Below are positions 10,061 to 21,194 of a DNA stretch of 64,000 nt, piece after piece. Made by a program: the position numbers and the translations under genes. Within the stretch, counting starts at the first letter, position 1. The number at the start of each line of letters is the position of its first letter. A model generated the notes under the pieces. That model was not told the origin of the DNA. It saw nothing but the letters and a program-made list of their open reading frames with translations, and ran no database searches. Source of the DNA: an uncultured Planctomycetia bacterium (GTDB lineage Bacteria > Omnitrophota > Gorgyraeia > Tantalellales > Tantalellaceae); assembly GCA_964527555.1 (NCBI GenBank), contig CAZGOG010000006.1:276-64275 (forward strand). The letters run 5' to 3'.

Positions 10061-11032
10061 CTATGCTTTCCCGGCACTGCCAAGCACGTTTTCATTCTTG
10101 TGCTTGTACATCTTGATAAGCTCGTCCCGGGCCGGACCAAGATACTTCCTGGGATCGAACTCTTTCGGTTTCGTCCACAGGACCTCGCGTATTTTGGCCG
10201 TCATTGCAAGCCGTCCGTCGGAATCGATGTTTATCTTACATACCGCGGATTCCGCAGCCTTGCGCAGCTGGTCTTCCGGAACTCCTACAGCGTTTTCCAG
10301 ATTTCCGCCGTATTTATTAATAAGTTCGACATACTCTGGAAGAACGGAACTTGACCCATGAAGTACAATGGGAAACCCCGGAAGCCTCTTCTCCACTTCT
10401 TTCAAGATATCGAATCTTAAAGGCGGGACTTCCTCTCCGGGCTTTACCTTGAATTTGTAAGCGCCGTGAGAGGTACCGATAGATATTGCCAGACTGTCTA
10501 CCCCGGTCTTGGATACAAACTCTTCCACCTCTTCCGGTTTGGTATAATGCGTCTTTTCGTGACTTACCTCATCTTCGATGCCGGCAAGAACGCCGAGTTC
10601 ACCTTCTACGGTGACGTCATACTTGCGGGCGTACCCTACGACCTTTTTAGTAAGGGCGATATTATCTTCAAAAGACAAACCGGAACCATCTATCATGACG
10701 GATGAAAAACCGCTTTCTACACAGGAGACGCATAATTCGTACGTATCGCCGTGGTCCAGGTGCAAGGTCACCGGTATGTTGCTGCCGGCATCCTTAATGA
10801 AGTCTATCGCGCCTCCGGCCATATGCCTGAGAAGTATGGGGTTAGCATACTTTCGGGCGCCGGAAGACACCTGGAGCACAACAGGAGAATTTGTGTCTAT
10901 ACAGGCGGTTAAAATAGCCTGAAGCTGCTCCATGTTGTTGAAATTATACCCCGGGATCGCATATTTGCCGTCAATGGCTTTTGCGTACATCTCTTTGGTG
11001 TTTACAAGACCTAAATCTTTATAGCTGTACAT
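10061..11032 (-). CDS. fba: Fructose-bisphosphate aldolase, class II
   Basis: The N-terminus MYSYKDLGLVNTKEM...AIPGYNFNNMEQ is diagnostic of class II FBA. The HLDHG and GTSHGAYK motifs are present. Confidence 0.9.
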   Translation of the reverse strand: MYSYKDLGLVNTKEMYAKAIDGKYAIPGYNFNNMEQLQAILTACIDTNSPVVLQVSSGARKYANPILLRHMAGGAIDFIKDAGSNIPVTLHLDHGDTYELCVSCVESGFSSVMIDGSGLSFEDNIALTKKVVGYARKYDVTVEGELGVLAGIEDEVSHEKTHYTKPEEVEEFVSKTGVDSLAISIGTSHGAYKFKVKPGEEVPPLRFDILKEVEKRLPGFPIVLHGSSSVLPEYVELINKYGGNLENAVGVPEDQLRKAAESAVCKINIDSDGRLAMTAKIREVLWTKPKEFDPRKYLGPARDELIKMYKHKNENVLGSAGKA

Positions 11033-11121: not shown

Positions 11122-11526
11122 TTATTCCTCTTTAACCAGAGACTTTATTGTTATTGATTGGAGCTTTTTGACAAGATCTTTCTCTATATTGTCCAGTTTT
11201 TTCTTAAGGTAACAGGTCCTCACCCTTGGGCAGGTCCTGCCTTTAAAAAGGTGTTCATTCAGCGTAAAACGCCCCTGGAATATCTCGATAATATTAACAA
11301 TGTTTATCTTCCCGGGATCGACAACCAGGGAAAAACCGCCGCTTCTGCCCTTATATGACTTAAGCAGGCCCTTTTTATTCAAAACTTGAAGTATTTTCCT
11401 CAAAAAAGGTCTCGGCATATCGAGTTCTTCCGAGAGACTGGAGACAGTAAACATCCCGTCCCTGGAGGAGGCTATACAGGTCAGGGCTCTTACGGCATAA
11501 TCGGTATCCCTGGTAAGCAGCTTCAT
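11122..11526 (-). CDS. Rrf2-family transcriptional regulator
   Basis: The N-terminal wHTH reads MKLLTRDTDYAVRAL, typical of Rrf2/IscR. There is a C-terminal CxxxxxC pair plus E/H, so it may ligate a cluster. Confidence 0.85.
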   Translation of the reverse strand: MKLLTRDTDYAVRALTCIASSRDGMFTVSSLSEELDMPRPFLRKILQVLNKKGLLKSYKGRSGGFSLVVDPGKINIVNIIEIFQGRFTLNEHLFKGRTCPRVRTCYLKKKLDNIEKDLVKKLQSITIKSLVKEE

Positions 11527-11564: not shown

Positions 11565-12605
11565 TTACTGATTACGTTTTTTTAAAAATTTCACGATAAA
11601 ATTCCTGCAAATGAGCGCGATAAGTAAAACAGTCGCAGCTAGCGTCAGCCAATCGGGAATTATCCTCCGGTGGGCATGCATCATAAAATGAATAGAACCA
11701 GGTTCATAAAAATAAGTAAAAATTTTGTCAAGCACTAGACCCAGCGTAATACTGCTGACAGCGATCGACCCCAGGTAAATAATAAGAGCTTTCCGCCCCA
11801 TATTCTTAGCGACTACGGACATGGTTACGATATTAGTCGCGGGACCCGCAACCAGGAAAACAAAAGCAGCGCCGGGACCCAGCCCCTTTATCATCAAAGC
11901 CGCAGCTATCGGTATCGAAGCGGTCGCACAAACATACATGGGGATACCTACAAGGAGCATTATAAACATCTCCTTAAGCCCGGATCCCAGGTATGTTTCA
12001 ATGAAGGTTTCCGGCAGAAAGTACGTAATCACTCCCCCCATCAGAATCCCTGCCAGTAACGCAAGACCAGTATCCTCTAATAGATCCCCAAAAGCATAAC
12101 TGAAAACGCCTTTTATCCTATGGCCGGTACCGTGCACGTGTTCCTTCTCCTCATCGCAGAGCTTACATTTAGGCACTTCTCTCGCAGGAGTAGGCTCTTC
12201 TTTAATAAAAATATTTGCAGCTGCTCCTGCCAAAACGCCCGTTATAAACGAAGCTATTATTCGGTAAACCGTAAAAAGTCCCCCCAAAAGTGAATACGTG
12301 GCAAAAATAGAATCAACGCCCGTCGTGGGCGTTGAAATAAGGAACGAGAGCACCGCCCCCCTGCTTGCGCCCTCTCTGCGTAATGACATCGCCGCCGGGA
12401 TAACCGAACAGGAGCAAAGAGGAAGCGGAATCCCGAACAAAGAAGCTGTCACCACCGAAAGAAGACTGCTCCTGCCAAGATGACGGCTCACCGTTCCGGT
12501 GCTGATAAAAATATGGAGAATACCGGCGAATAAAAAGCCGAACAATAGGTAAGGAGCCATTGCTTTGAGCAGAAAATACGATTCTTTGATTATACCGCTG
12601 ATCAT
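11565..12605 (-). CDS. Predicted permease (COG0701/DUF318-like) with CxC motifs
   Basis: A polytopic membrane protein with a CSCSVIP motif and a cytoplasmic CKLCDEEKEHVHGTGH metal-binding-like loop. Confidence 0.6.
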   Translation of the reverse strand: MISGIIKESYFLLKAMAPYLLFGFLFAGILHIFISTGTVSRHLGRSSLLSVVTASLFGIPLPLCSCSVIPAAMSLRREGASRGAVLSFLISTPTTGVDSIFATYSLLGGLFTVYRIIASFITGVLAGAAANIFIKEEPTPAREVPKCKLCDEEKEHVHGTGHRIKGVFSYAFGDLLEDTGLALLAGILMGGVITYFLPETFIETYLGSGLKEMFIMLLVGIPMYVCATASIPIAAALMIKGLGPGAAFVFLVAGPATNIVTMSVVAKNMGRKALIIYLGSIAVSSITLGLVLDKIFTYFYEPGSIHFMMHAHRRIIPDWLTLAATVLLIALICRNFIVKFLKKRNQ

Positions 12606-12607
12606 TT

Positions 12608-13129
12608 TTACAAAAGTTTTTTTATAATAGATTCAAAAAAGTCTTTGCCCCTGTAGCCGACTATCTTCTCTACGATCCTTCCCTTCCGGTCAATGATGAA
12701 CGTGGTTGGGATGCTCCTTATACCCCCGTAACTGGCAACCACTATCTGATCTGCCATAAGTACGGGGTAATCTATCTCGTTTGTCTGGACAAAAGGTCTC
12801 ACGGTAGCTGCCCCTCCCTGATCCAAGGCGACCCCTATAATCACAAGCCCTTTTCCCTTGTATCTCTGGTAGAGGTCCTTAAAGTGCGGCACTTCCATCC
12901 TGCAGGGCGGGCACCACGTCGCCCAGAAATCAAGTATGACCACTTTGCCTTTTGTCTGTGACAGCGAAAAGTCGTTACCGTTTAAATCTTTAAGCTTGAA
13001 ATCAGGGGCTACGGGTCTCAAGATATCAGATTCTGAAGATTCCGTGCGCGCCTGGCATGAAACAAGACTCGCCGCAATAAAAACTATTCCGATAAATACT
13101 AAAAATTTTAAACTTTTTCTTGTTTTCAC
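12608..13129 (-). CDS. TlpA/ResA-like thiol:disulfide oxidoreductase lipoprotein
   Basis: Has a signal peptide with a lipobox (LVSC) and the WATWCPPCRME thioredoxin-fold active site. Confidence 0.8.
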   Translation of the reverse strand: MKTRKSLKFLVFIGIVFIAASLVSCQARTESSESDILRPVAPDFKLKDLNGNDFSLSQTKGKVVILDFWATWCPPCRMEVPHFKDLYQRYKGKGLVIIGVALDQGGAATVRPFVQTNEIDYPVLMADQIVVASYGGIRSIPTTFIIDRKGRIVEKIVGYRGKDFFESIIKKLL

Positions 13130-13144
13130 CTGGCAATCCCTCCT

Positions 13145-13873
13145 TTATTTCGCGAACTTGTAAAACGCATCCGGAACGAACCTAACCAGTATACTTAAAC
13201 TGTCAAAAAACATAAGACAGCCCACTGCTATTAGCAGAAGTCCCGCAACGATCTCTCCCAGCCGGATAAACTTTTTATACCGCTGGAAAAAAGTCATAAA
13301 CGCACCTATCGCAAAACCCGTTACAATAAAAGGTATACCGAGCCCTAAGGAATAAACCGCTAAAAGCAGCATGCCTTTTAGCATGGTCTTTTGGGTTGCC
13401 GCCAGAGAAAGAATACCTCCCAGAATAGGCCCTACACAAGGTGTCCAGCCGAATCCAAATGCAAGTCCGATAACAAAAGCCCCCAAAAAACCGGATGACG
13501 GCTTTTTTATATTAATGCGCTTCTCATAGTTAAGCCATCCTATTCTAACAGCCCCTATGAGATACAGGCCGAATATAATAACAAGTACGCCCGCTATCTT
13601 TGTAAAGACCGTTATGTAGCTGGCGAGGAACTTTCCGACTAGAGAGGCAGATGCCCCCAGACAAATGAAAATTACGGAAAACCCAAGAACGAAAAAAATA
13701 GATACTATCCCCGCTTCTTTAAACTCCTTTTTCTTGTCAGCACCATGCCGAAGCTCTTCGAGTGAGACTCCCGAAAGGAAGGAAATATATCCGGGCACAA
13801 GAGGGAGTATGCAAGGGGATAAAAAAGACAGGACCCCTGCTATAAAAGCTATCCCCACATTGATGCTATCCAT
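13145..13873 (-). CDS. ccdA: Cytochrome c-type biogenesis/thiol-disulfide transporter CcdA (DsbD core)
   Basis: Has the two conserved Cys of the DsbD transmembrane domain (LSPCILPLVPG and GWTPCVGPILG). Confidence 0.85.
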   Translation of the reverse strand: MDSINVGIAFIAGVLSFLSPCILPLVPGYISFLSGVSLEELRHGADKKKEFKEAGIVSIFFVLGFSVIFICLGASASLVGKFLASYITVFTKIAGVLVIIFGLYLIGAVRIGWLNYEKRINIKKPSSGFLGAFVIGLAFGFGWTPCVGPILGGILSLAATQKTMLKGMLLLAVYSLGLGIPFIVTGFAIGAFMTFFQRYKKFIRLGEIVAGLLLIAVGCLMFFDSLSILVRFVPDAFYKFAK

Positions 13874-13890
13874 GCGTAAATCGCCTCCCT

Positions 13891-14523
13891 TTACTTGAAA
13901 ATCTCGCCTGTCTCTCCCGACCAGAACAAGAGATCCAGCTCATCCATCGGGATACCTATTTTTCTTGAGAATCTTCTCAGTTTTTCTTCAAGTGACAAAT
14001 ATTTTTTCTCTGATATTCCATCGGGAACCTGCCGGATGATACCGTATCTAACCATGTTCCTTAGTATGTGTACGTCAAGTATAGCCAGATCCCGACCGAA
14101 TCCGATATTCCTCAAAAAATGACTCGCTTCTTTAAGCCCTATTCCCTTAACATTACACGCCAGCCAGTGACGCGTCTTGAAAACGTCTCCGGCATCTATC
14201 CGCCTTTTTAACCTTAGGCTGCCGCCTTCGGTAAAAAGTCTTCTCGCCTCCACGATATAGCCGGCTTTATTGTTTGGAAAACGGACTGCTTTCAGGCCCC
14301 TTCTTATCTGAAGCCGGTTCCCCTTAAAAAGCATCCCTCTCTTTTCCAACCCGGAAACAGCTTTATCACAGTAGACCGCCTTCGACTGGGGAGTGCATAT
14401 ACAGAAACAAAGCTCGCTAAAGATCTTTCTCTCAGGTCCGTTCCATACCGCCTTGAACTCTTTCAGCCGGCTTTTTATCTTGGTCTTTTTTCTGGCGTAT
14501 TCTTCTATTAATTTATGCTTCAC
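13891..14523 (-). CDS. N-glycosylase/DNA lyase (Ogg2-type 8-oxoguanine glycosylase, HhH-GPD)
   Basis: About 210 aa with HhH-GPD-like content and a Lys/Asp pair. Size and N-terminus fit archaeal/Thermotoga-type Ogg. Confidence 0.65.
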   Translation of the reverse strand: MKHKLIEEYARKKTKIKSRLKEFKAVWNGPERKIFSELCFCICTPQSKAVYCDKAVSGLEKRGMLFKGNRLQIRRGLKAVRFPNNKAGYIVEARRLFTEGGSLRLKRRIDAGDVFKTRHWLACNVKGIGLKEASHFLRNIGFGRDLAILDVHILRNMVRYGIIRQVPDGISEKKYLSLEEKLRRFSRKIGIPMDELDLLFWSGETGEIFK

Positions 14524-14708
14524 AATACGGATTCTATAAGCATCCTGGCAATTTTAATATGAGTCACTTCATCATCACGTATAGCACTCAGCTGACTTTT
14601 TACGCCTTCATCCTGGAGCTGGTCAATATAATGATCATAAAAAGCCTTTGCCCTTTCCTCGTGGACTAGTATTTCCCGGAATTCTTTAAGCAGCATTTCA
14701 GTATTCAT
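14520..14708 (-). CDS. Ferritin-like helical-hairpin protein, half B (E...DEVTH motif)
   Basis: 62 aa and predicted all-helical. HEERAK and DDEVTH give E + ExxH, which is half a diiron site. It overlaps the upstream partner by 11 nt in a different frame. Confidence 0.4.
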   Translation of the reverse strand: MNTEMLLKEFREILVHEERAKAFYDHYIDQLQDEGVKSQLSAIRDDEVTHIKIARMLIESVL

Positions 14709-14940
14709 CTCGATTTGAGGCCCCCACTTCCAGTACCATTTTATCGATTATCTCTTTATGCCTTGAGGAGTCGCGGTGAAGCGTGGACAGGAGTTTTTCG
14801 ATCTTCTTTTTCTTCTCTATTTCCATACCCTCAGTCTGCTGGACCATAGCTTTTGCAAAACTTGCATACATCCCTATCATGCCCTCTTCGACATATACCA
14901 GTTCATTGAGCCCGGCCAAAAGCCTGTCTTTTTTCATCAT
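14698..14940 (-). CDS. Ferritin-like helical-hairpin protein, half A (E...ExxH motif)
   Basis: 80 aa and helical, with VEEG...EIEKKKKIEKLLSTLHRDSSRH. Together the two halves would form a four-helix diiron bundle. Confidence 0.4.
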   Translation of the reverse strand: MMKKDRLLAGLNELVYVEEGMIGMYASFAKAMVQQTEGMEIEKKKKIEKLLSTLHRDSSRHKEIIDKMVLEVGASNRDEY

Positions 14941-14949
14941 AGGTATCTC

Positions 14950-15873
14950 TTATCCCCCTTCCCTGCTTTTTGAAATATACTTGAAAGCCCCGAGTGCCGC
15001 TTTCGCGCCTTCCCCGGCAGCTACTATTATCTGTTTTTCGGGGACATTCGTAACATCCCCGGCGGCAAATATCCCGGGGACGCTGGTCTCATTCGCACAA
15101 TTCACCTCAATCTCCCCTTGTTTATTTTTATCCAGTAAACCAGTAAAGCCTGAATTCGGGATAAGTCCGATCTCGACAAAAATACCCTGGACAGATATCT
15201 CTTTCTCTTCTTCATCCTTTTTCACCTTTATACTTTTTACAAAGGCCTCCCCCAATATCGCGGTTATCCTGGTCTTATTAAGAACGGTAACCTTATCGCT
15301 CTTAAGAACCTTCTCCCGCATTATCGCATCACCTTTAAGTTCCGGTTCTATATTTATTATGAAAATTTTACCAGCTATCTTGATAAGCTGAAGCGCCGCA
15401 TCCAGTGCGGAGTTGCCCCCACCGATAATCGCGACATCCTTACCTGAGAACAAGGGGCCGTCACAGGTGGCGCAGTAAGTCAGACCCTTATTTTTAAACT
15501 CTTCTTCACCCGGCACGTTAAGCTCTCTTGATCTTTTTCCTGAAGAGACGATGACAGTTCTTGCTTTATATTTGCCTTTCAGGGTGCTAACCGCAAAAAA
15601 ATTTCCATCTTTGTCGATGCCGGTTACTTCTTCCTGCTCCTTTACCGGTATACTGTACTTTTTCATGTGCTCCTCAAACTTGGCCGTAAGTTCACTGCCG
15701 GTCACAAACTGGTATCCGGTATAATTTTCGATGTCTCCGCTCCAGGCGGCCTGGCCCCCGATGTCACCGGTTAGAACAATAAGATCCATCCCTTTGCGTG
15801 CGGCATATACACCGGCTGTAATACCCGCCGGACCGGCGCCTATTATGATAACATCGTATATTTTATCCATCAC
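14950..15873 (-). CDS. trxB: Thioredoxin-disulfide reductase
   Basis: Begins YDVIIIGAGPAG, has the CATCDG redox-active disulfide and a GGGNSA NADPH motif, at 307 aa. Confidence 0.9.
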   Translation of the reverse strand: MMDKIYDVIIIGAGPAGITAGVYAARKGMDLIVLTGDIGGQAAWSGDIENYTGYQFVTGSELTAKFEEHMKKYSIPVKEQEEVTGIDKDGNFFAVSTLKGKYKARTVIVSSGKRSRELNVPGEEEFKNKGLTYCATCDGPLFSGKDVAIIGGGNSALDAALQLIKIAGKIFIINIEPELKGDAIMREKVLKSDKVTVLNKTRITAILGEAFVKSIKVKKDEEEKEISVQGIFVEIGLIPNSGFTGLLDKNKQGEIEVNCANETSVPGIFAAGDVTNVPEKQIIVAAGEGAKAALGAFKYISKSREGG

Positions 15874-15904
15874 CGTATAGAATTTTACTGTTTAAAACCG
15901 TCCG

Positions 15905-16141
15905 TTACAGTCCCAGCGCGCTGGAGATCTTCTCTTTATCAAAACCCACGATTATCTCGCCTTCGATATCAAGGACCGGCACTCCCATCTGGCCGGATTT
16001 AGCGACCATCTCCTCGGCCCTGGCATGATTAGCGGAAACATCAATATCTTCAAAGTCTATATTATTATCTTTAAGAAACTGCTTCGTTTTTAGACAAAAC
16101 GGGCAAGTCGGAGTGCTGTAAATCATGATTTTTTTACTCAT
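15905..16141 (-). CDS. Glutaredoxin-like protein
   Basis: 78 aa with the CPFC active site (YSTPTCPFCLKTK). Confidence 0.8.
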   Translation of the reverse strand: MSKKIMIYSTPTCPFCLKTKQFLKDNNIDFEDIDVSANHARAEEMVAKSGQMGVPVLDIEGEIIVGFDKEKISSALGL

Positions 16142-16154
16142 CTGCGCTCCTCTT

Positions 16155-16640
16155 TTAAGATTCTAACACCTTTTTTAAATCAGTCAGCTTTTTTATGTGA
16201 CTCTCTTCCTCTTTAATCAGTTTGTCGATTGTCTCTGCCTCACCAGCCGATACAATCTTCTTCATATTTTCATAGAAAGTAACCGATTCTTCCTCAAGTT
16301 TTATGCCGAGTGTGACTGCCTCTATATCGCTTTTGGTGCCCGCGGCTACTTCCTTGCCCTTATCCTTCCGTGTAAAGACGTATTCCCCGGCTAACGTATT
16401 CATATAGGAAAAATAGTCTTCGGGGTAAGCGCCACTCGGCTCATACCTGCAGGAAGCCTTAAATATATCCTTGAAAATATCTATGTGTTTCTCTTCTTCT
16501 TCCGAAAGATATACAAAGACTTCGGAAGCCTGTTTACTTTGGGCCATCCGGGCAAGCTTACCATAGAAGTCCTTCCCGTTCTTCTCTATCTGTATGCCCA
16601 GTTCCACAACCTCGCAGCTTGAAAAATGCTTATCGCTCAT
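16155..16640 (-). CDS. Rubrerythrin-like ferritin-like diiron protein without a rubredoxin domain
   Basis: Carries two E...ExxH repeats (EEEKHI, EEESHIKK) at 161 aa. Confidence 0.7.
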   Translation of the reverse strand: MSDKHFSSCEVVELGIQIEKNGKDFYGKLARMAQSKQASEVFVYLSEEEEKHIDIFKDIFKASCRYEPSGAYPEDYFSYMNTLAGEYVFTRKDKGKEVAAGTKSDIEAVTLGIKLEEESVTFYENMKKIVSAGEAETIDKLIKEEESHIKKLTDLKKVLES

Positions 16641-16664
16641 CTATCCTCCCGCGCTTTTTACCGG

Positions 16665-17249
16665 TTAATAATTCTCGCAGAAAAGTTCAAAATATTCCTG
16701 CGGGTGCCTGCATGACGGACATTTCTCAATGGCCTCTTCACCCTCATGAACATACCCGCAATTACGGCATTTCCACTTACGAGGCGCCTCTCTCTTGAAC
16801 ACCTTACCGCCTTTGATGTTTGCTGCAAGCTTGCGGTAGCGGGCTTCGTGCGCCTGCTCGACTCTGGCTATGTTCTCAAAAGAAGCAGCGATCTCATCAA
16901 ATCCCTCTTTTTTTGCCACTTCGGCAGCTTCTTTGTAAAGCTTTGTCCATTCAAGATTCTCGCCCGCTGCGGCTGCTTCGAGATTGGCAAGGGTATCGGA
17001 GATAATCCCGGCCGGGTAAGCGGCCTGTATCTCAAGCTCACCCCCTTCTAAATATTTAAAGAACACTTTAGCGTGTTCCCGTTCGTTTTCTGCCGTCTCA
17101 AGAAAAAGCGCCTCGATCTGCCTGTACCCTTCTTTCCTGGCGACACCGGCAAAATAAGTGTACCTGTTCCTCGCCTGGGATTCACCTGCGAAAGAAGCCA
17201 AAAGATTTTTTTCTGTCTTTGTTCCCTTTACACTTGCCATTTTTATCAT
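16665..17249 (-). CDS. rbr: Rubrerythrin
   Basis: An N-terminal diiron ferritin-like domain (NLLASFAGESQARNRY, ENEREHA) is followed by a C-terminal rubredoxin-like CRNCGY...CPSC domain. Confidence 0.9.
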   Translation of the reverse strand: MIKMASVKGTKTEKNLLASFAGESQARNRYTYFAGVARKEGYRQIEALFLETAENEREHAKVFFKYLEGGELEIQAAYPAGIISDTLANLEAAAAGENLEWTKLYKEAAEVAKKEGFDEIAASFENIARVEQAHEARYRKLAANIKGGKVFKREAPRKWKCRNCGYVHEGEEAIEKCPSCRHPQEYFELFCENY

Positions 17250-17285
17250 CCTCCCTTTAGCAATTCACTTCCCCGGTTTTACAGA

Positions 17286-17666
17286 TTATTTCCTTTTCCA
17301 AAGCATATGTATCGTACAAAATTCTCTTACTTCGACTATATCCAGATTTTTAACACAAAATTCCGCTTCAGGCGCTTCTCCGGGATTAAGCTCCGCGCGC
17401 AAAACTTTATCCGCAGTTAAGACTTCGATGAACTTTATATAATGCGCATCTTCCATGGGGTGCGGAGTGCTGCCGACTTTCACCTTGACCCCTCCTTTAG
17501 TCTCCTCGACTACCGGAACGTGCTTTTCCTTCCCCTCATCCTCGGTTTTGGGATAAAGTTTAGCCATCGGCTGACCGCAGCATACAAGGTCAGGCGCCCC
17601 TTCATGCGCGATCTCTACGACATTCCCGCATATACTGCACCTGTAAAGTTCCCTTAATCTCGTCAT
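17286..17666 (-). CDS. dfx: Desulfoferrodoxin (2Fe superoxide reductase)
   Basis: The N-terminal desulforedoxin motif reads CSICGNVVE...CCGQPM. A C-terminal SOR domain has EKHVP and His ligands. Size is 126 aa. Confidence 0.9.
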   Translation of the reverse strand: MTRLRELYRCSICGNVVEIAHEGAPDLVCCGQPMAKLYPKTEDEGKEKHVPVVEETKGGVKVKVGSTPHPMEDAHYIKFIEVLTADKVLRAELNPGEAPEAEFCVKNLDIVEVREFCTIHMLWKRK

Positions 17667-18826
17667 GATATCCCTCCCTTTAATTGTTCTTTTATACCGT
17701 TAATCGTATTTTCATCCGGCACATACTGGACCTTTATGCCTTTCAGCATATCAAAACCGCATGAACCTAATACGCCCTCTATCTCACCGATACTTTGGCC
17801 TCCCCAGCCGTAAGAACCGAACGCAAGGCCCCTCCTTCCCTTCGGGGCAAGGCCTTTCATGTAAGTAAGAAAAGCCGATACCGTAGGAAGCAATCCGTTG
17901 TTGAGCGTGGGTGAACCCACGCATATATACTTACTGTTTAGGATCCGGGTCATTATGTCTGATATATGATTAGTCTTTAGACTCATAAGATGTGAGGGTA
18001 TTCCTTTATCTTCAAAAATTTCATAAATTGCTTCTGCGATTTTTTCAGTCGATCCCCACATCGTATCATAGACGATTGTCGCTTTCGCGCTGGTAATATT
18101 ATTCGCCCATTCTTTATAAAGACCTATTATCTCCCCCAGATACTTGCGCCAGATAATGCCGTGACTAGGCGCTATCATATCGATATCGAGGCCGGAAAGC
18201 GCTTCAAGCGCTTTATCTACCTGCGCCCCATACGGCAGGACGATATTGGCATAATATTTTGCGGCTTCCTCCCTGACTATATCCCACCCCACTTGATCGT
18301 CAAAACGCTCCGGTGAAGCTATGTGCTGGCCGAAGGCATCGTTCGGAAGGAGCAGTTTATCCTCGGGTATATACGTCGCCATGGAATCAGGCCAATGGAC
18401 CATCTGGGTAAGAACGAACCGGGGGTTTCTCCTGCCGATATTTATCGCCTCGCCTGTATTAACAACCTTTAATTTCCAGTCGGCTTTATAATGTTTTTTA
18501 AGTCCCTTTTCACCGTTGGGGGATGTTATGACAGTGGCATCCGGGCATAATTTCATCAGCATGGGCAGGCTCCCCGAATGGTCCATCTCAACATGATTGG
18601 ATATGACATAATTTATTTCAGAGGGGTCTATTACCGTCCGTATCCGCTGGAGCATCTCATCACAGAGATAATGTTTGACCGTATCGACAAGGAGTATTTT
18701 TTCGTCGATGATGAGGTATGCGTTATAGGTGGATCCTCGCTGGGTAAGGTATCCATGGAAGTTTCTTAAGTTCCGGTCTATACCACCGACCCAGTATATC
18801 CCCTTTTTTATCTCAACTCGCTTCAT
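17663..18826 (-). CDS. Flavodiiron protein (FprA/rubredoxin:oxygen oxidoreductase-type). Start placed at MKRVEIKKGIYWVGG.
   Basis: A metallo-beta-lactamase-like diiron domain is followed by a C-terminal flavodoxin-like domain. The N-terminus YWVG...RNFHGY matches the FDP family. The ATGA overlap with dfx suggests translational coupling. Confidence 0.85.
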   Translation of the reverse strand: MKRVEIKKGIYWVGGIDRNLRNFHGYLTQRGSTYNAYLIIDEKILLVDTVKHYLCDEMLQRIRTVIDPSEINYVISNHVEMDHSGSLPMLMKLCPDATVITSPNGEKGLKKHYKADWKLKVVNTGEAINIGRRNPRFVLTQMVHWPDSMATYIPEDKLLLPNDAFGQHIASPERFDDQVGWDIVREEAAKYYANIVLPYGAQVDKALEALSGLDIDMIAPSHGIIWRKYLGEIIGLYKEWANNITSAKATIVYDTMWGSTEKIAEAIYEIFEDKGIPSHLMSLKTNHISDIMTRILNSKYICVGSPTLNNGLLPTVSAFLTYMKGLAPKGRRGLAFGSYGWGGQSIGEIEGVLGSCGFDMLKGIKVQYVPDENTINGIKEQLKGGIS

Positions 18827-18845
18827 GGTAAGTCTTTCCCAAGCC

Positions 18846-18989
18846 TTAATCTTCTTCCGGTTCAAATTGATCTTTTCCGACCCCGCACTCGGGACATACC
18901 CATTCTTCCGGAAGATCTTCAAATGCCTCGTTATTGTTTTCCTTGGGATCATAAATATAACCACATACCGTACACCTGTATCTTTTCAT
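18846..18989 (-). CDS. Rubredoxin (47 aa; below the ORF-track cutoff)
   Basis: A manual reverse-complement translation gives [47 protein letters not shown]. It has the classic CxxCG...CPxCG rubredoxin motifs and an SD-like GGGAGAGG upstream. Confidence 0.85.
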
Positions 18990-19089
18990 CGCCTCTCCCT
19001 TCTTTTATGCTCGCTTCTTATCCTTTATGATATAACAGATCTATATGACATTCTATATTAAAATAATATATTTTTTCCATTGATATTTA

Positions 19090-19130
19090 AGCTTAAATAA
19101 ACCCCGCATCAACGCTAGAAACCCTGATCG
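19090..19130 (-). other. Stem-loop between the small ORF and rubredoxin (candidate attenuator or processing hairpin)
   Basis: AACCCCGCATC and GATGCGGGGTT form a perfect 11-bp stem around a 19-nt loop. On the minus strand it is followed by a U-rich UUUAUUUAAG tract. Confidence 0.45.
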
Positions 19131-19162
19131 ATGCGGGGTTGTCATGAAAACTGGTGGGTAGT

Positions 19163-19246
19163 TTACCGTCTTGCCCGGGACATTCTACAGCAACCCTCTT
19201 TACAATGCGCCACGGGGCGCAGCATATATCTGACTGTAATATTCAT
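19163..19246 (-). CDS. Candidate 27-aa Cys-rich small ORF (MNITVRYMLRPVAHCKEGCCRMSRARR), possibly a leader peptide for the rubredoxin operon
   Basis: A strong SD (AAAGGAGGA) lies 5 nt before the ATG. The promoter/operator module 1 is about 50 bp upstream. An 11-bp-stem hairpin at 19090-19130 lies between its stop and rubredoxin. Confidence 0.3.
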   Translation of the reverse strand: MNITVRYMLRPVAHCKEGCCRMSRARR

Positions 19247-19289
19247 CCGTTCCTCCTTTCATGATCACCTGCTTTTTTACTGTCCTGCT

Positions 19290-19323
19290 TATAATGATAC
19301 CATATTAGTATCATTTGTCAAGG
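19290..19323 (-). promoter_or_regulatory. Sigma70-like promoter with overlapping palindromic operator, module 1 (drives the small ORF and the rubredoxin-FDP-Dfx-Rbr operon)
   Basis: The minus strand reads TTGACA-aatgatactaatatgg-TATCAT, a -35 and -10 with a 16-nt spacer. The inverted repeat TGATAC-N7-GTATCA (plus 19295-19313) spans the spacer and the -10. Confidence 0.5.
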
Positions 19324-19497
19324 GGATTAACATTTTTTAAATATATCTTAAATATCCCCTTTTATGTTTCTTGCGCTATATTAAGTAGTATACCTAGTAA
19401 TTGTAAATATCAAAACGATAAATTAAAAACACCTGCATTTTTTAAATGCAGGCTCTCTTCCCATTGTCTTGCGACAACTTGGAGGTCTTGGGAAGTC

Positions 19498-19671
19498 TTA
19501 ATAAACGTTAGGTACTTTTATACCCTCTTTTGGATTTTCACATCTTTCCTCTGCCTCGTAGTGTCTTCTTTCTTTAAACTCTTCTTGCTTGCCTTTATTC
19601 CATGCCTCGACGGGACGAAAAAAACCCGTAACGCGCGCAAAAACTTCTACGCCACACCTTCTTTTGTCCAT
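19498..19671 (-). CDS. 57-aa protein resembling the C-terminal glycyl-radical tail of class III ribonucleotide reductase NrdD (candidate 'spare part')
   Basis: Manual translation gives MDKRRCGVEVFARVTGFFRPVEAWNKGKQEEFKERRHYEAEERCENPKEGIKVPNVY. It has an RVTGF glycyl-loop-like motif and a P-x-E-x-W-N-x-GK-x-x-E-F-K-x-R-x-H tail, as I recall it from NrdD C-termini. A strong SD (GGGGGGAGG) and its own promoter are present. Confidence 0.45.
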   Translation of the reverse strand: MDKRRCGVEVFARVTGFFRPVEAWNKGKQEEFKERRHYEAEERCENPKEGIKVPNVY

Positions 19672-19715
19672 AATAAAGCCTCCCCCCTTCGCTCACAAAA
19701 AACTGTCCTGACAGC

Positions 19716-19750
19716 TTAAAAGATACCATATGGGTATCATTTTGTCAAAT
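19716..19750 (-). promoter_or_regulatory. Sigma70-like promoter with overlapping palindromic operator, module 2 (drives the NrdD-tail-like ORF)
   Basis: The minus strand reads TTGACA-aaatgatacccatatgg-TATCTT. A near-palindrome GATACC-ATAT-GGGTATC lies at plus 19722-19738. About 33 of 38 bases match module 1. Confidence 0.5.
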
Positions 19751-19785
19751 AAAAAACGCCTGGCGGTAAAGCCAGGCGTTTTTCG
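19751..19785 (-). terminator. Intrinsic terminator of gdhA
   Basis: AACGCCTGGC-ggtaaa-GCCAGGCGTT is a perfect 10-bp stem flanked by an A-run and a T-run. It lies immediately 3' of the gdhA stop. Confidence 0.7.
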
Positions 19786-19799
19786 TCTTCTCCGAAAGT

Positions 19800-21194
<1,395 letters not shown>

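Follow-up and report, generated by a model that had tools for sequence, protein, structure and literature searches.

Several described regulatory systems resemble the one considered here. In Clostridium acetobutylicum, PerR controls rubredoxin, FprA, Dfx and rubrerythrin, and in Streptomyces the redox-sensing Rrf2-family regulator RsrR carries a [2Fe-2S] cluster with histidine and glutamate among its ligands. NsrR, another Rrf2-family protein, is found in Proteobacteria, Bacillus and Streptomyces. It is a nitric oxide (NO)-sensing repressor whose classical targets are the hybrid-cluster protein, a RIC/YtfE-like protein and a flavodiiron protein (PMC1274295), and its published site, gATGyAT-N5-ATrCATc, is a 19-bp palindrome. 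We analyzed a 64-kb stretch of contig CAZGOG010000006.1 from an uncultured bacterium of the Omnitrophota (the whole stretch is referred to below as the window), in which two near-identical promoter-operator modules, each with a palindrome embedded in a sigma-70-type promoter, precede genes of oxidative stress defense. Based on the recurrence of this module in other genomes, we propose, with a probability of about 0.78, that the operator is bound by an Rrf2-family regulator encoded in the same gene cluster and acting as a repressor.

Both modules lie on the minus strand and contain exactly the strings quoted for them in the original prediction, which was made from the letters of the window; strings and strand are confirmed, whereas the coordinates given there were off by 2–3 nucleotides (nt). 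Module 1 (19287..19321), recovered by consensus scan, palindrome scan and weight matrix, consists of a -35 hexamer TTGACA (19321-19316), a 16-nt spacer and an extended -10 element, TGgTATCAT, ending at 19294. Its palindrome core, TGATACTAATATGGTATCA (plus-strand positions 19295-19313), matches TGATAC-N7-GTATCA with 0 mismatches and belongs to a full palindrome of 23 bp, AATGATACTAATATGGTATCATT (19315-19293). Module 2 (19714..19748), found by the same three approaches, has TTGACA at 19748-19743, a 17-nt spacer and the extended -10 element TGgTATCTT ending at 19720; its full palindrome, AATGATACCCATATGGTATCTTT (19741-19719), is likewise 23 bp long, with 1 mismatch in the core (19721-19739). The anticipated 16–17-nt spacers are therefore present, both promoters are TG-extended, and in both the palindrome occupies the spacer and overlaps the -10 element, the classic position of a repressor site.

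In a consensus promoter scan of the region, the top two sites were Module 1 (11/12 matches) and Module 2 (10/12). A weight matrix built from the related sites described below scored them at 41.4 and 31.6 bits, respectively, compared to -0.1 bits for the next site in the window and a maximum of 11.7 over 30 shuffles. Elsewhere in the 64 kb, TGATAC-N7-GTATCA is approached just by matches with 2 mismatches, at chance level. Thus, there are exactly two copies of the module in the window, far above chance, and the proposed search for further copies, while yielding none within the window beyond these two, retrieved at least 119 loci in other genomes.

The scan of other genomes employed the pattern TTGACA-N2-4-WGAYAY-N5-DGGTATCWTT (about 37 bits, including the three gap lengths), derived from four sites, namely, the two of the window and two of the closest divergent relative that was obtained (locus L009), and was run on both strands of 596 gigabases of species-representative genomes, one per species. 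By our own arithmetic, about 10 matches would be expected by chance, compared to the at least 119 loci found. About 105 of the matches listed come from Omnitrophota, metagenome-assembled genomes labeled 'Planctomycetes' or 'bacterium', Elusimicrobia, Margulisiibacteriota/Saganbacteria and Aminicenantes, with the label Candidatus Omnitrophota accounting for about 80. The approximately 10 listed matches in unrelated taxa (for example, Halobacillus, Gemmiger and Cytophagales) equal the chance number and lack the associated genes. The consensus over 117 tabulated sites, cTTGACAAATGATACTAATATGGTATCATTA, is preceded by a T-rich tract on the 5' side, shows agreement even at the degenerate positions of the pattern and is identical to Module 1. 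The sigma-70 geometry of the two modules holds throughout these 117 related sites. In L009, synteny with the window is kept, including the terminal rrf2 gene, and the protein resembling the NrdD tail (see below) is 65% identical; here, too, two modules are present, TTGACAAAAAGACACCCGTAAGGTATCATTTAA upstream of an operon encoding a ferredoxin-like (Fer4) protein, a cupin and the NrdD-tail protein, and TTGACAAAAAGATATATAAAGGGTATCATTTAA upstream of MEYTQRYMLRPVTHCKEGCCIRS, a homologue of the short open reading frame (ORF) that follows Module 1.

This short ORF, MNITVRYMLRPVAHCKEGCCRMSRARR, which encodes 27 amino acids (aa) according to its translation (19163..19246, minus strand) and is the first gene behind Module 1, provided an independent anchor. 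Its core was back-translated with all synonymous codons allowed and searched against metagenome contigs, yielding at least 120 loci. Among those listed, 113 have at least 110 nt of upstream sequence, and in 64 of these a perfect TGATAC-N7-GTATCA lies within 160 nt upstream; 7 more contain the palindrome with 1–2 mismatches, all in the same promoter frame. Positions on which no selection had been imposed are almost invariant, namely, the -35 hexamer, the AAA that follows it, the TG, and the TT next to the palindrome on its downstream side; the sequence outside is random. Of the 42 listed loci without a nearby motif, 8 have it further upstream, and among the remaining 34 there are 9 that extend less than 450 nt upstream. 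In both the genome scan and the anchor scan, the left arm, TGATAC, is as conserved as the right arm.

The genes behind the operator were counted in same-strand clusters at approximately 115 sites among the matches listed; as the loci were cut at 8 kb, the counts are lower bounds. The first genes fall into two classes, encoding either the micro-ORF (MDITVKYMLRPVAHCKEGCS...) or an Rrf2-type protein (MKLITRDTDYA...). At no fewer than 80 of these sites the downstream cluster contains rrf2, of the same subfamily as the rrf2 gene of the window. This strongly favors the latter, the Rrf2 gene with which the strand run ends, as the cognate factor, for which it had been named as one candidate. The other recurrent members are a ferredoxin-like protein (at least 54 sites), a short hybrid-cluster protein (at least 43; NCBIfam hydroxylamine reductase, E-value 1e-211), a cysteine-rich protein of 76 aa (at least 34), an FNR-like reductase (at least 19), Dfx (at least 16), FprA (at least 15) and rubredoxin (at least 13), along with ferritin-like proteins, rubrerythrins, peroxiredoxin, a RIC-like hemerythrin protein and a disulfide reductase. 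Two loci, L092 and L032, encode a ribonucleotide reductase of class II (B12-type) immediately after the operator and micro-ORF. The common downstream gene families did not include a flavohaemoglobin gene, and the 64-kb window contains no homologue of hcp, of the ferredoxin-like gene or of the gene for the 76-aa protein.

Rrf2 is assigned as the cognate factor mainly because the operator is found repeatedly ahead of members of this single regulator subfamily. The position of the operator upstream of rrf2 in other genomes is the classical signature of a local repressor that, by this arrangement, would be autoregulated. In L025, L035, L037, L039, L053, L058, L109 and other loci, the rrf2 start codon is located only about 10–17 nt past the -10 element (5–10 nt past the end of the pattern); this short distance, seen in Elusimicrobia and some Omnitrophota, implies a leaderless rrf2 mRNA.

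The Rrf2-family regulator of the window, the proposed cognate repressor (11122..11526, minus strand), was identified by the profiles PF02082 (103 bits, cut-off 30) and TIGR00738 (101.2 bits, cut-off 73.3), and its solved relatives include a BadM/Rrf2 protein, CymR, NsrR and IscR (PDB 4cic, 5n07 for NsrR and 4hf0 for IscR). It remains below the cut-offs of all named equivalogs with which it was compared: RirA (68/193), the SUF regulator (67/111), IscR (50/207.6), NsrR (NF008240; 50/182), CymR (33/195) and HypR (32/180). Its identity to the operator-adjacent regulators is 52–59% in Omnitrophota and 36–46% in Elusimicrobia. An alignment of 122 sequences, comprising the window protein and 121 distinct proteins from the fetched loci, shows conservation of the segment PRPFLRKILQ in the DNA-binding domain and no variation at C99 or C105; position 92 is occupied by cysteine in 112 sequences and by histidine in 10. 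A motif of three ligands of the C/H92-C99-C105 type is typical of iron-sulfur Rrf2 sensors, and the window protein has H92, C99 and C105 at these ligand positions.

The ten His92 members form a subclade (the window, L009, L042, L052, L065, L092, L098, L197, L206 and L226), several of which, including L009, L052 and L092, have a variant left half-site, TGACAC or AGACAC. The nearest relatives of the window protein are encoded in metagenome-assembled genomes of Omnitrophota and share His92; in L092 and L052 a gene for an ArsP permease is located nearby, as in the window. These relationships point to an Omnitrophota origin of the window. In L009, a STAS-domain protein resembling anti-sigma-antagonists is encoded directly upstream of rrf2 (14292-14657); it is absent from the window.

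From these sequences we infer DNA binding, repression, the presence of a cluster and the signal sensed, which can be combined into the following mechanism. A 23-bp operator, AATGATAC-N7-GTATCATT, is built into the spacer and -10 element of a strong sigma-70-type promoter, where a dimer of the Rrf2 protein (11122-11526) would occupy it and block RNA polymerase. Since promoters so close to consensus need no activator and the palindrome covers the spacer and -10 element, repression by occlusion is the natural reading. The most likely switch is damage to or modification of the predicted iron-sulfur cluster by O2, reactive oxygen species or NO, upon which the protein would release the DNA and both transcription units would be turned on. 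In this genome, Module 1 would directly control the micro-ORF with its RNA pseudoknot, and Module 2 the NrdD-tail protein; the rubredoxin operon, including rrf2 itself, would be boosted only via read-through of the hairpin that follows the micro-ORF. With superoxide reductase, rubrerythrin, peroxiredoxin and Ogg among the genes concerned, along with two kinds of ribonucleotide reductase back-up, NO seems no more likely as the signal than O2 or reactive oxygen species.

Several observations weigh against this scheme. The rrf2 gene of the window closes an 8-kb operon that is preceded by a hairpin; it lies 8 kb away from the operators and has none directly 5' of it, so the autoregulatory loop of other genomes can operate here only indirectly. 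The sites of the genome scan were chosen by the motif itself, the micro-ORF anchor being the sole scan independent of it. The extended -10 element takes up the same positions as the right half-site, which owes its conservation partly to RNA polymerase. Cluster binding by the window protein, with His92, appears less certain than in the Cys92 members, and the mix of regulated genes would fit O2, reactive oxygen species and NO equally.

The distance between rrf2 and the operators leaves room for a different regulator of the PerR/Fur or CRP/FNR type, encoded elsewhere, that would bind the palindrome, the linkage to Rrf2 then reflecting co-regulation only. We regard this as distinctly unlikely, since across more than 100 genomes this Rrf2 subfamily is the only DNA-binding protein recurrently encoded beside the motif, and the conserved helix segment of the Rrf2 proteins tracks an invariant operator over a range of 36–59% protein identity. 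A palindrome of 23 bp with an 8-7-8 arrangement fits sites of the Rrf2 type, such as the 19-bp palindrome of NsrR, and does not fit the consensus sequences of PerR/Fur and CRP. The PerR-like protein that had been suggested as a second candidate finds no support, in that no gene of the Fur/PerR family recurs among the common downstream families.

If the Rrf2 protein is the factor that binds, it might still activate transcription or act in a dual manner, in the way of IscR at type-2 sites, or the apo form might be the one that binds DNA, with the logic of the switch inverted. Rrf2 proteins such as IscR are able to activate and to bind in the apo form, and the histidine at the first ligand position of the window protein would be compatible with this. 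Nevertheless, a consensus -35 hexamer, an optimal spacer and an extended -10 element are already in place, so that an activator would be superfluous, and a site covering the spacer and -10 element is in the position of a repressor; we consider this arrangement unlikely. The overlap of the right arm with the extended -10 element could also mean that no regulator is involved and that the module is a strong, conserved constitutive promoter with incidental symmetry, or else an RNA hairpin or terminator of the opposite strand, as the palindrome of Module 2 was indeed flagged as terminator-like on the plus strand. Yet, the left arm, TGATAC, is nearly invariant despite having no known promoter function, the module is confined to one functional gene set rather than found ahead of highly expressed genes in general, and no convergent plus-strand gene ends at either site, all of which renders this explanation highly improbable. 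Repression by the Rrf2 protein is, accordingly, the explanation that we prefer.

The micro-ORF behind Module 1 belongs to a family of peptides of 25–27 aa with the core YMLRPVAHCKEGC and more than 170 homologues (L009 and L011-L249). As a rule it opens the gene cluster behind the operator, with the next gene mostly within a few tens of nt (median 46 over all next ORFs); in 102 of 160 loci the gene that follows is rrf2, mostly with no terminator in between. All synonymous codons are used in the YMLRPVAHCKEGC core and the residues preceding it, which indicates that the peptide is under selection. An exact look-up of six micro-ORF sequences, including that of the window, in a collection of 15 billion proteins found none of them, and no paper with the peptide motif was found in the searchable literature, which does not include subscription journals.

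Past the core, it is the nucleotides rather than the amino acids that are conserved (GUCCYGGGCANGACGUUAAACUGCCC), through the stop codon and the 7 nt that follow. This segment is predicted by covariation to form an H-type RNA pseudoknot over the stop codon of the micro-ORF (19156..19182, minus strand). In the family, stem S1 is (U)GUC/GAC(G), stem S2 is GGGCA/UGCCC, the UAA stop lies in loop 3, and a U-rich tract often follows; in the window, S1 is UGUC/GACG, S2 is GGGCA/UACCC, with one C-A mismatch, and loop 3 is GUAAAC. Over 141 in-register sequences, 82–100% of the pairs are standard. When near-duplicates were removed, without consulting the pairing, 76 sequences remained, in which 93.6% of alignment cells are paired, compared to 31–46% when the partner strand is slid; compensatory double changes occur in 8 of 9 pairs, involving both helices, and the observed values were not attained in any of 500 shuffles. 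Neither the window nor 18 related loci gave an Rfam match at gathering score, and at E-values up to 5 the region produced only sub-threshold, terminator-like noise. A hidden reading frame in the tail of the micro-ORF, hinted at by variation at first codon positions, was rejected, since the spacing to rrf2 does not keep a fixed value modulo 3 and the pattern is accounted for by base-pair covariation. Reading the TGA after KEGC in some variants as selenocysteine was rejected as well, as the hairpin of those variants is unrelated and an extension is lacking. Tentatively, the micro-ORF and pseudoknot might be an undescribed sensor or leader unit, either a nascent-peptide/RNA attenuator, through which translation of a Cys/His peptide would be linked to the expression of rrf2 and the detoxification genes, or a redox- or metal-active microprotein working with Rrf2. 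If so, a two-layer stress switch, made up of a DNA operator and a peptide/RNA leader, would be conserved across the Omnitrophota and would have been missed by annotation.

The order of elements on the minus strand of the window is glutamate dehydrogenase, Module 2, NrdD-tail gene, terminator, Module 1, micro-ORF, hairpin, rubredoxin operon and rrf2. Module 1 had been predicted to drive a small ORF and the rubredoxin operon: the small ORF, that is, the 27-aa micro-ORF, does come next and is the only gene that Module 1 drives directly, whereas the operon lies behind a hairpin and a separate promoter-like element, so that transcription from Module 1 would have to read through to reach it. The hairpin (19094..19139, minus strand; -28.9 kcal/mol), a perfect stem of 13 bp followed by UUUAUUU between the micro-ORF and rubredoxin, is probably an intrinsic terminator, possibly a leaky one. 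Its counterpart after the micro-ORF in L009 has a folding energy of -32.7 kcal/mol (z = -5.3), and the layout recurs in L009, L059 and L115. Between the hairpin and rubredoxin, a candidate second promoter, TGGAAA-N18-TAGAAT (19050..19079, minus strand), matched the consensus at 9/12 positions and is not accompanied by an operator. A similar element, TGG(A/C)AA-N17-18-TA(G/T)AAT, is seen by eye after the hairpin in all four genomes with rubredoxin behind the micro-ORF, i.e. the window, L009 (about 10433-10465), L059 and L115, and the rubredoxin operon probably has a promoter of its own.

The oxidative-stress operon itself (11565..18989, minus strand), delineated by profile matches, encodes rubredoxin, a flavodiiron protein, desulfoferrodoxin, two rubrerythrins, glutaredoxin, a thioredoxin-reductase-like protein, proteins of 80 and 62 aa, an Ogg glycosylase, a CcdA/DsbD protein, an AhpC/TSA-type redoxin and an ArsP-type permease. 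The gene pair for the 80-aa and 62-aa proteins (14520-14940, minus strand) is conserved in L009 (13217-13637), and the 62-aa protein weakly resembles the EncB family of ferritin-like encapsulin cargo (E-value 2e-5, far under the cut-off).

Module 2 lies, as predicted, upstream of an ORF resembling the NrdD tail. This ORF (19498..19671, minus strand; 57 aa) is a free-standing piece of the C-terminal, glycyl-radical part of the anaerobic ribonucleotide reductase NrdD: it matches positions 526-562 of the Pfam profile PF13597 (E-value 6e-9) and only the C-terminus of the NCBIfam NrdD models, covering just the last ~35 residues of the enzyme. Genes of this kind, encoding 54–57 aa, are found under the same operator in L009 (10001-10165) and downstream of the motif, on its strand, in L038 and L085; a 55-aa homologue is encoded on an N4-like phage contig (L010). 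The product is possibly a spare part of the GrcA type, and the presence of both NrdD tails and a class II reductase (L092 and L032) under the operator suggests a back-up for the oxygen-sensitive reductase. A terminator-like hairpin with a T run, recovered by consensus scan (19431..19453, minus strand), closes the NrdD-tail unit, and the terminator of the glutamate dehydrogenase gene, a perfect inverted repeat of 13 nt (19752..19783, minus strand), insulates Module 2 on the other side.

The similarity between the two modules extends past the -10 element (AAGC..AGGACAG); this likeness is real in the present genome and is not kept in others, which suggests that the modules arose by recent duplication. 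A mobile or duplicated element was rejected, as the common stretch is merely ~35–45 nt long and lacks flanking repeats. A small stem, GCUGU-CAGG-ACAGU, with U6 after it, is located right where the Module 2 transcript is expected to begin (19697-19715, minus strand). The GGTATC of the right arm resembles the sigma-B-type -10 element GGGTAT, and recognition by an alternative sigma factor was therefore considered; it was rejected because TTGACA is invariant, the 16–17-nt spacer fits sigma-70 and no -35 element of the GTTTAA type is present.

The Omnitrophota, a phylum of abundant, mostly anaerobic bacteria that are uncultured, have to our knowledge yielded no regulator studied by experiment. The present analysis would provide them with a concrete regulator-operator pair, consisting of a short, near-invariant operator and a defined putative sensor protein. 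The genes concerned join O2 and NO detoxification (hcp, flavodiiron protein, desulfoferrodoxin and rubrerythrin) with a back-up of ribonucleotide reductase, and the operator can serve as a marker of oxidative and nitrosative stress in metagenomes and metatranscriptomes of Omnitrophota. In addition, a widespread micro-ORF with its pseudoknot has been overlooked by gene callers and by Rfam.

Comparison with the described systems places this one closest to NsrR, with which it shares the protein superfamily, a palindromic operator laid over the promoter and an overlapping gene set (hcp, RIC-like and flavodiiron proteins). The ligands of Streptomyces NsrR, Cys93, Cys99 and Cys105, also occupy nearly the same positions as residues 92, 99 and 105 here. 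The differences are a distinct operator, aTGATAC-N7-GTATCAt, in both half-site and spacing, the equivalog score (50 versus 182 bits), the micro-ORF and pseudoknot with which the operon usually opens, and the taxa, Omnitrophota and their neighbors. IscR, RirA, the SUF regulator, CymR and HypR share the winged-helix Rrf2 fold and commonly autoregulation, and IscR and RirA have the cluster-ligand loop as well, but the scores are far under their cut-offs and the genes found here are not those of iron-sulfur assembly, iron uptake or cysteine metabolism. PerR of C. acetobutylicum is similar in that a repressor holds the O2-detoxification genes of an anaerobe off until oxidative stress occurs; it is, however, a member of the Fur family with another, AT-rich box, and nothing here indicates a Fur-family protein. 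RsrR sets a precedent for non-cysteine ligands that is relevant to the His92 subclade, including the window protein, although the match is weak (PDB 6hsd, E-value 4e-4) and both operator and genes are different. For the micro-ORF only, leader attenuators of the TnaC type offer a functional analogy, being ORFs of ~25 aa with a conserved core at the head of an operon, and the stop codon of the micro-ORF lies inside an RNA structure often followed by a U-rich tract or terminator; ribosome stalling at the micro-ORF would, however, be hypothetical, a free Cys/His microprotein is equally possible, and the pseudoknot has no counterpart in Rfam. No prior description of the motif, or of an Rrf2 protein with these genes or taxa, was found in the searchable literature, subscription journals not being covered. 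Taken together, the predicted system is an Rrf2 repressor-operator pair of the NsrR/IscR kind that lies outside every named subfamily and has a distinct operator, and the micro-ORF with its pseudoknot is the part that could be new in kind.

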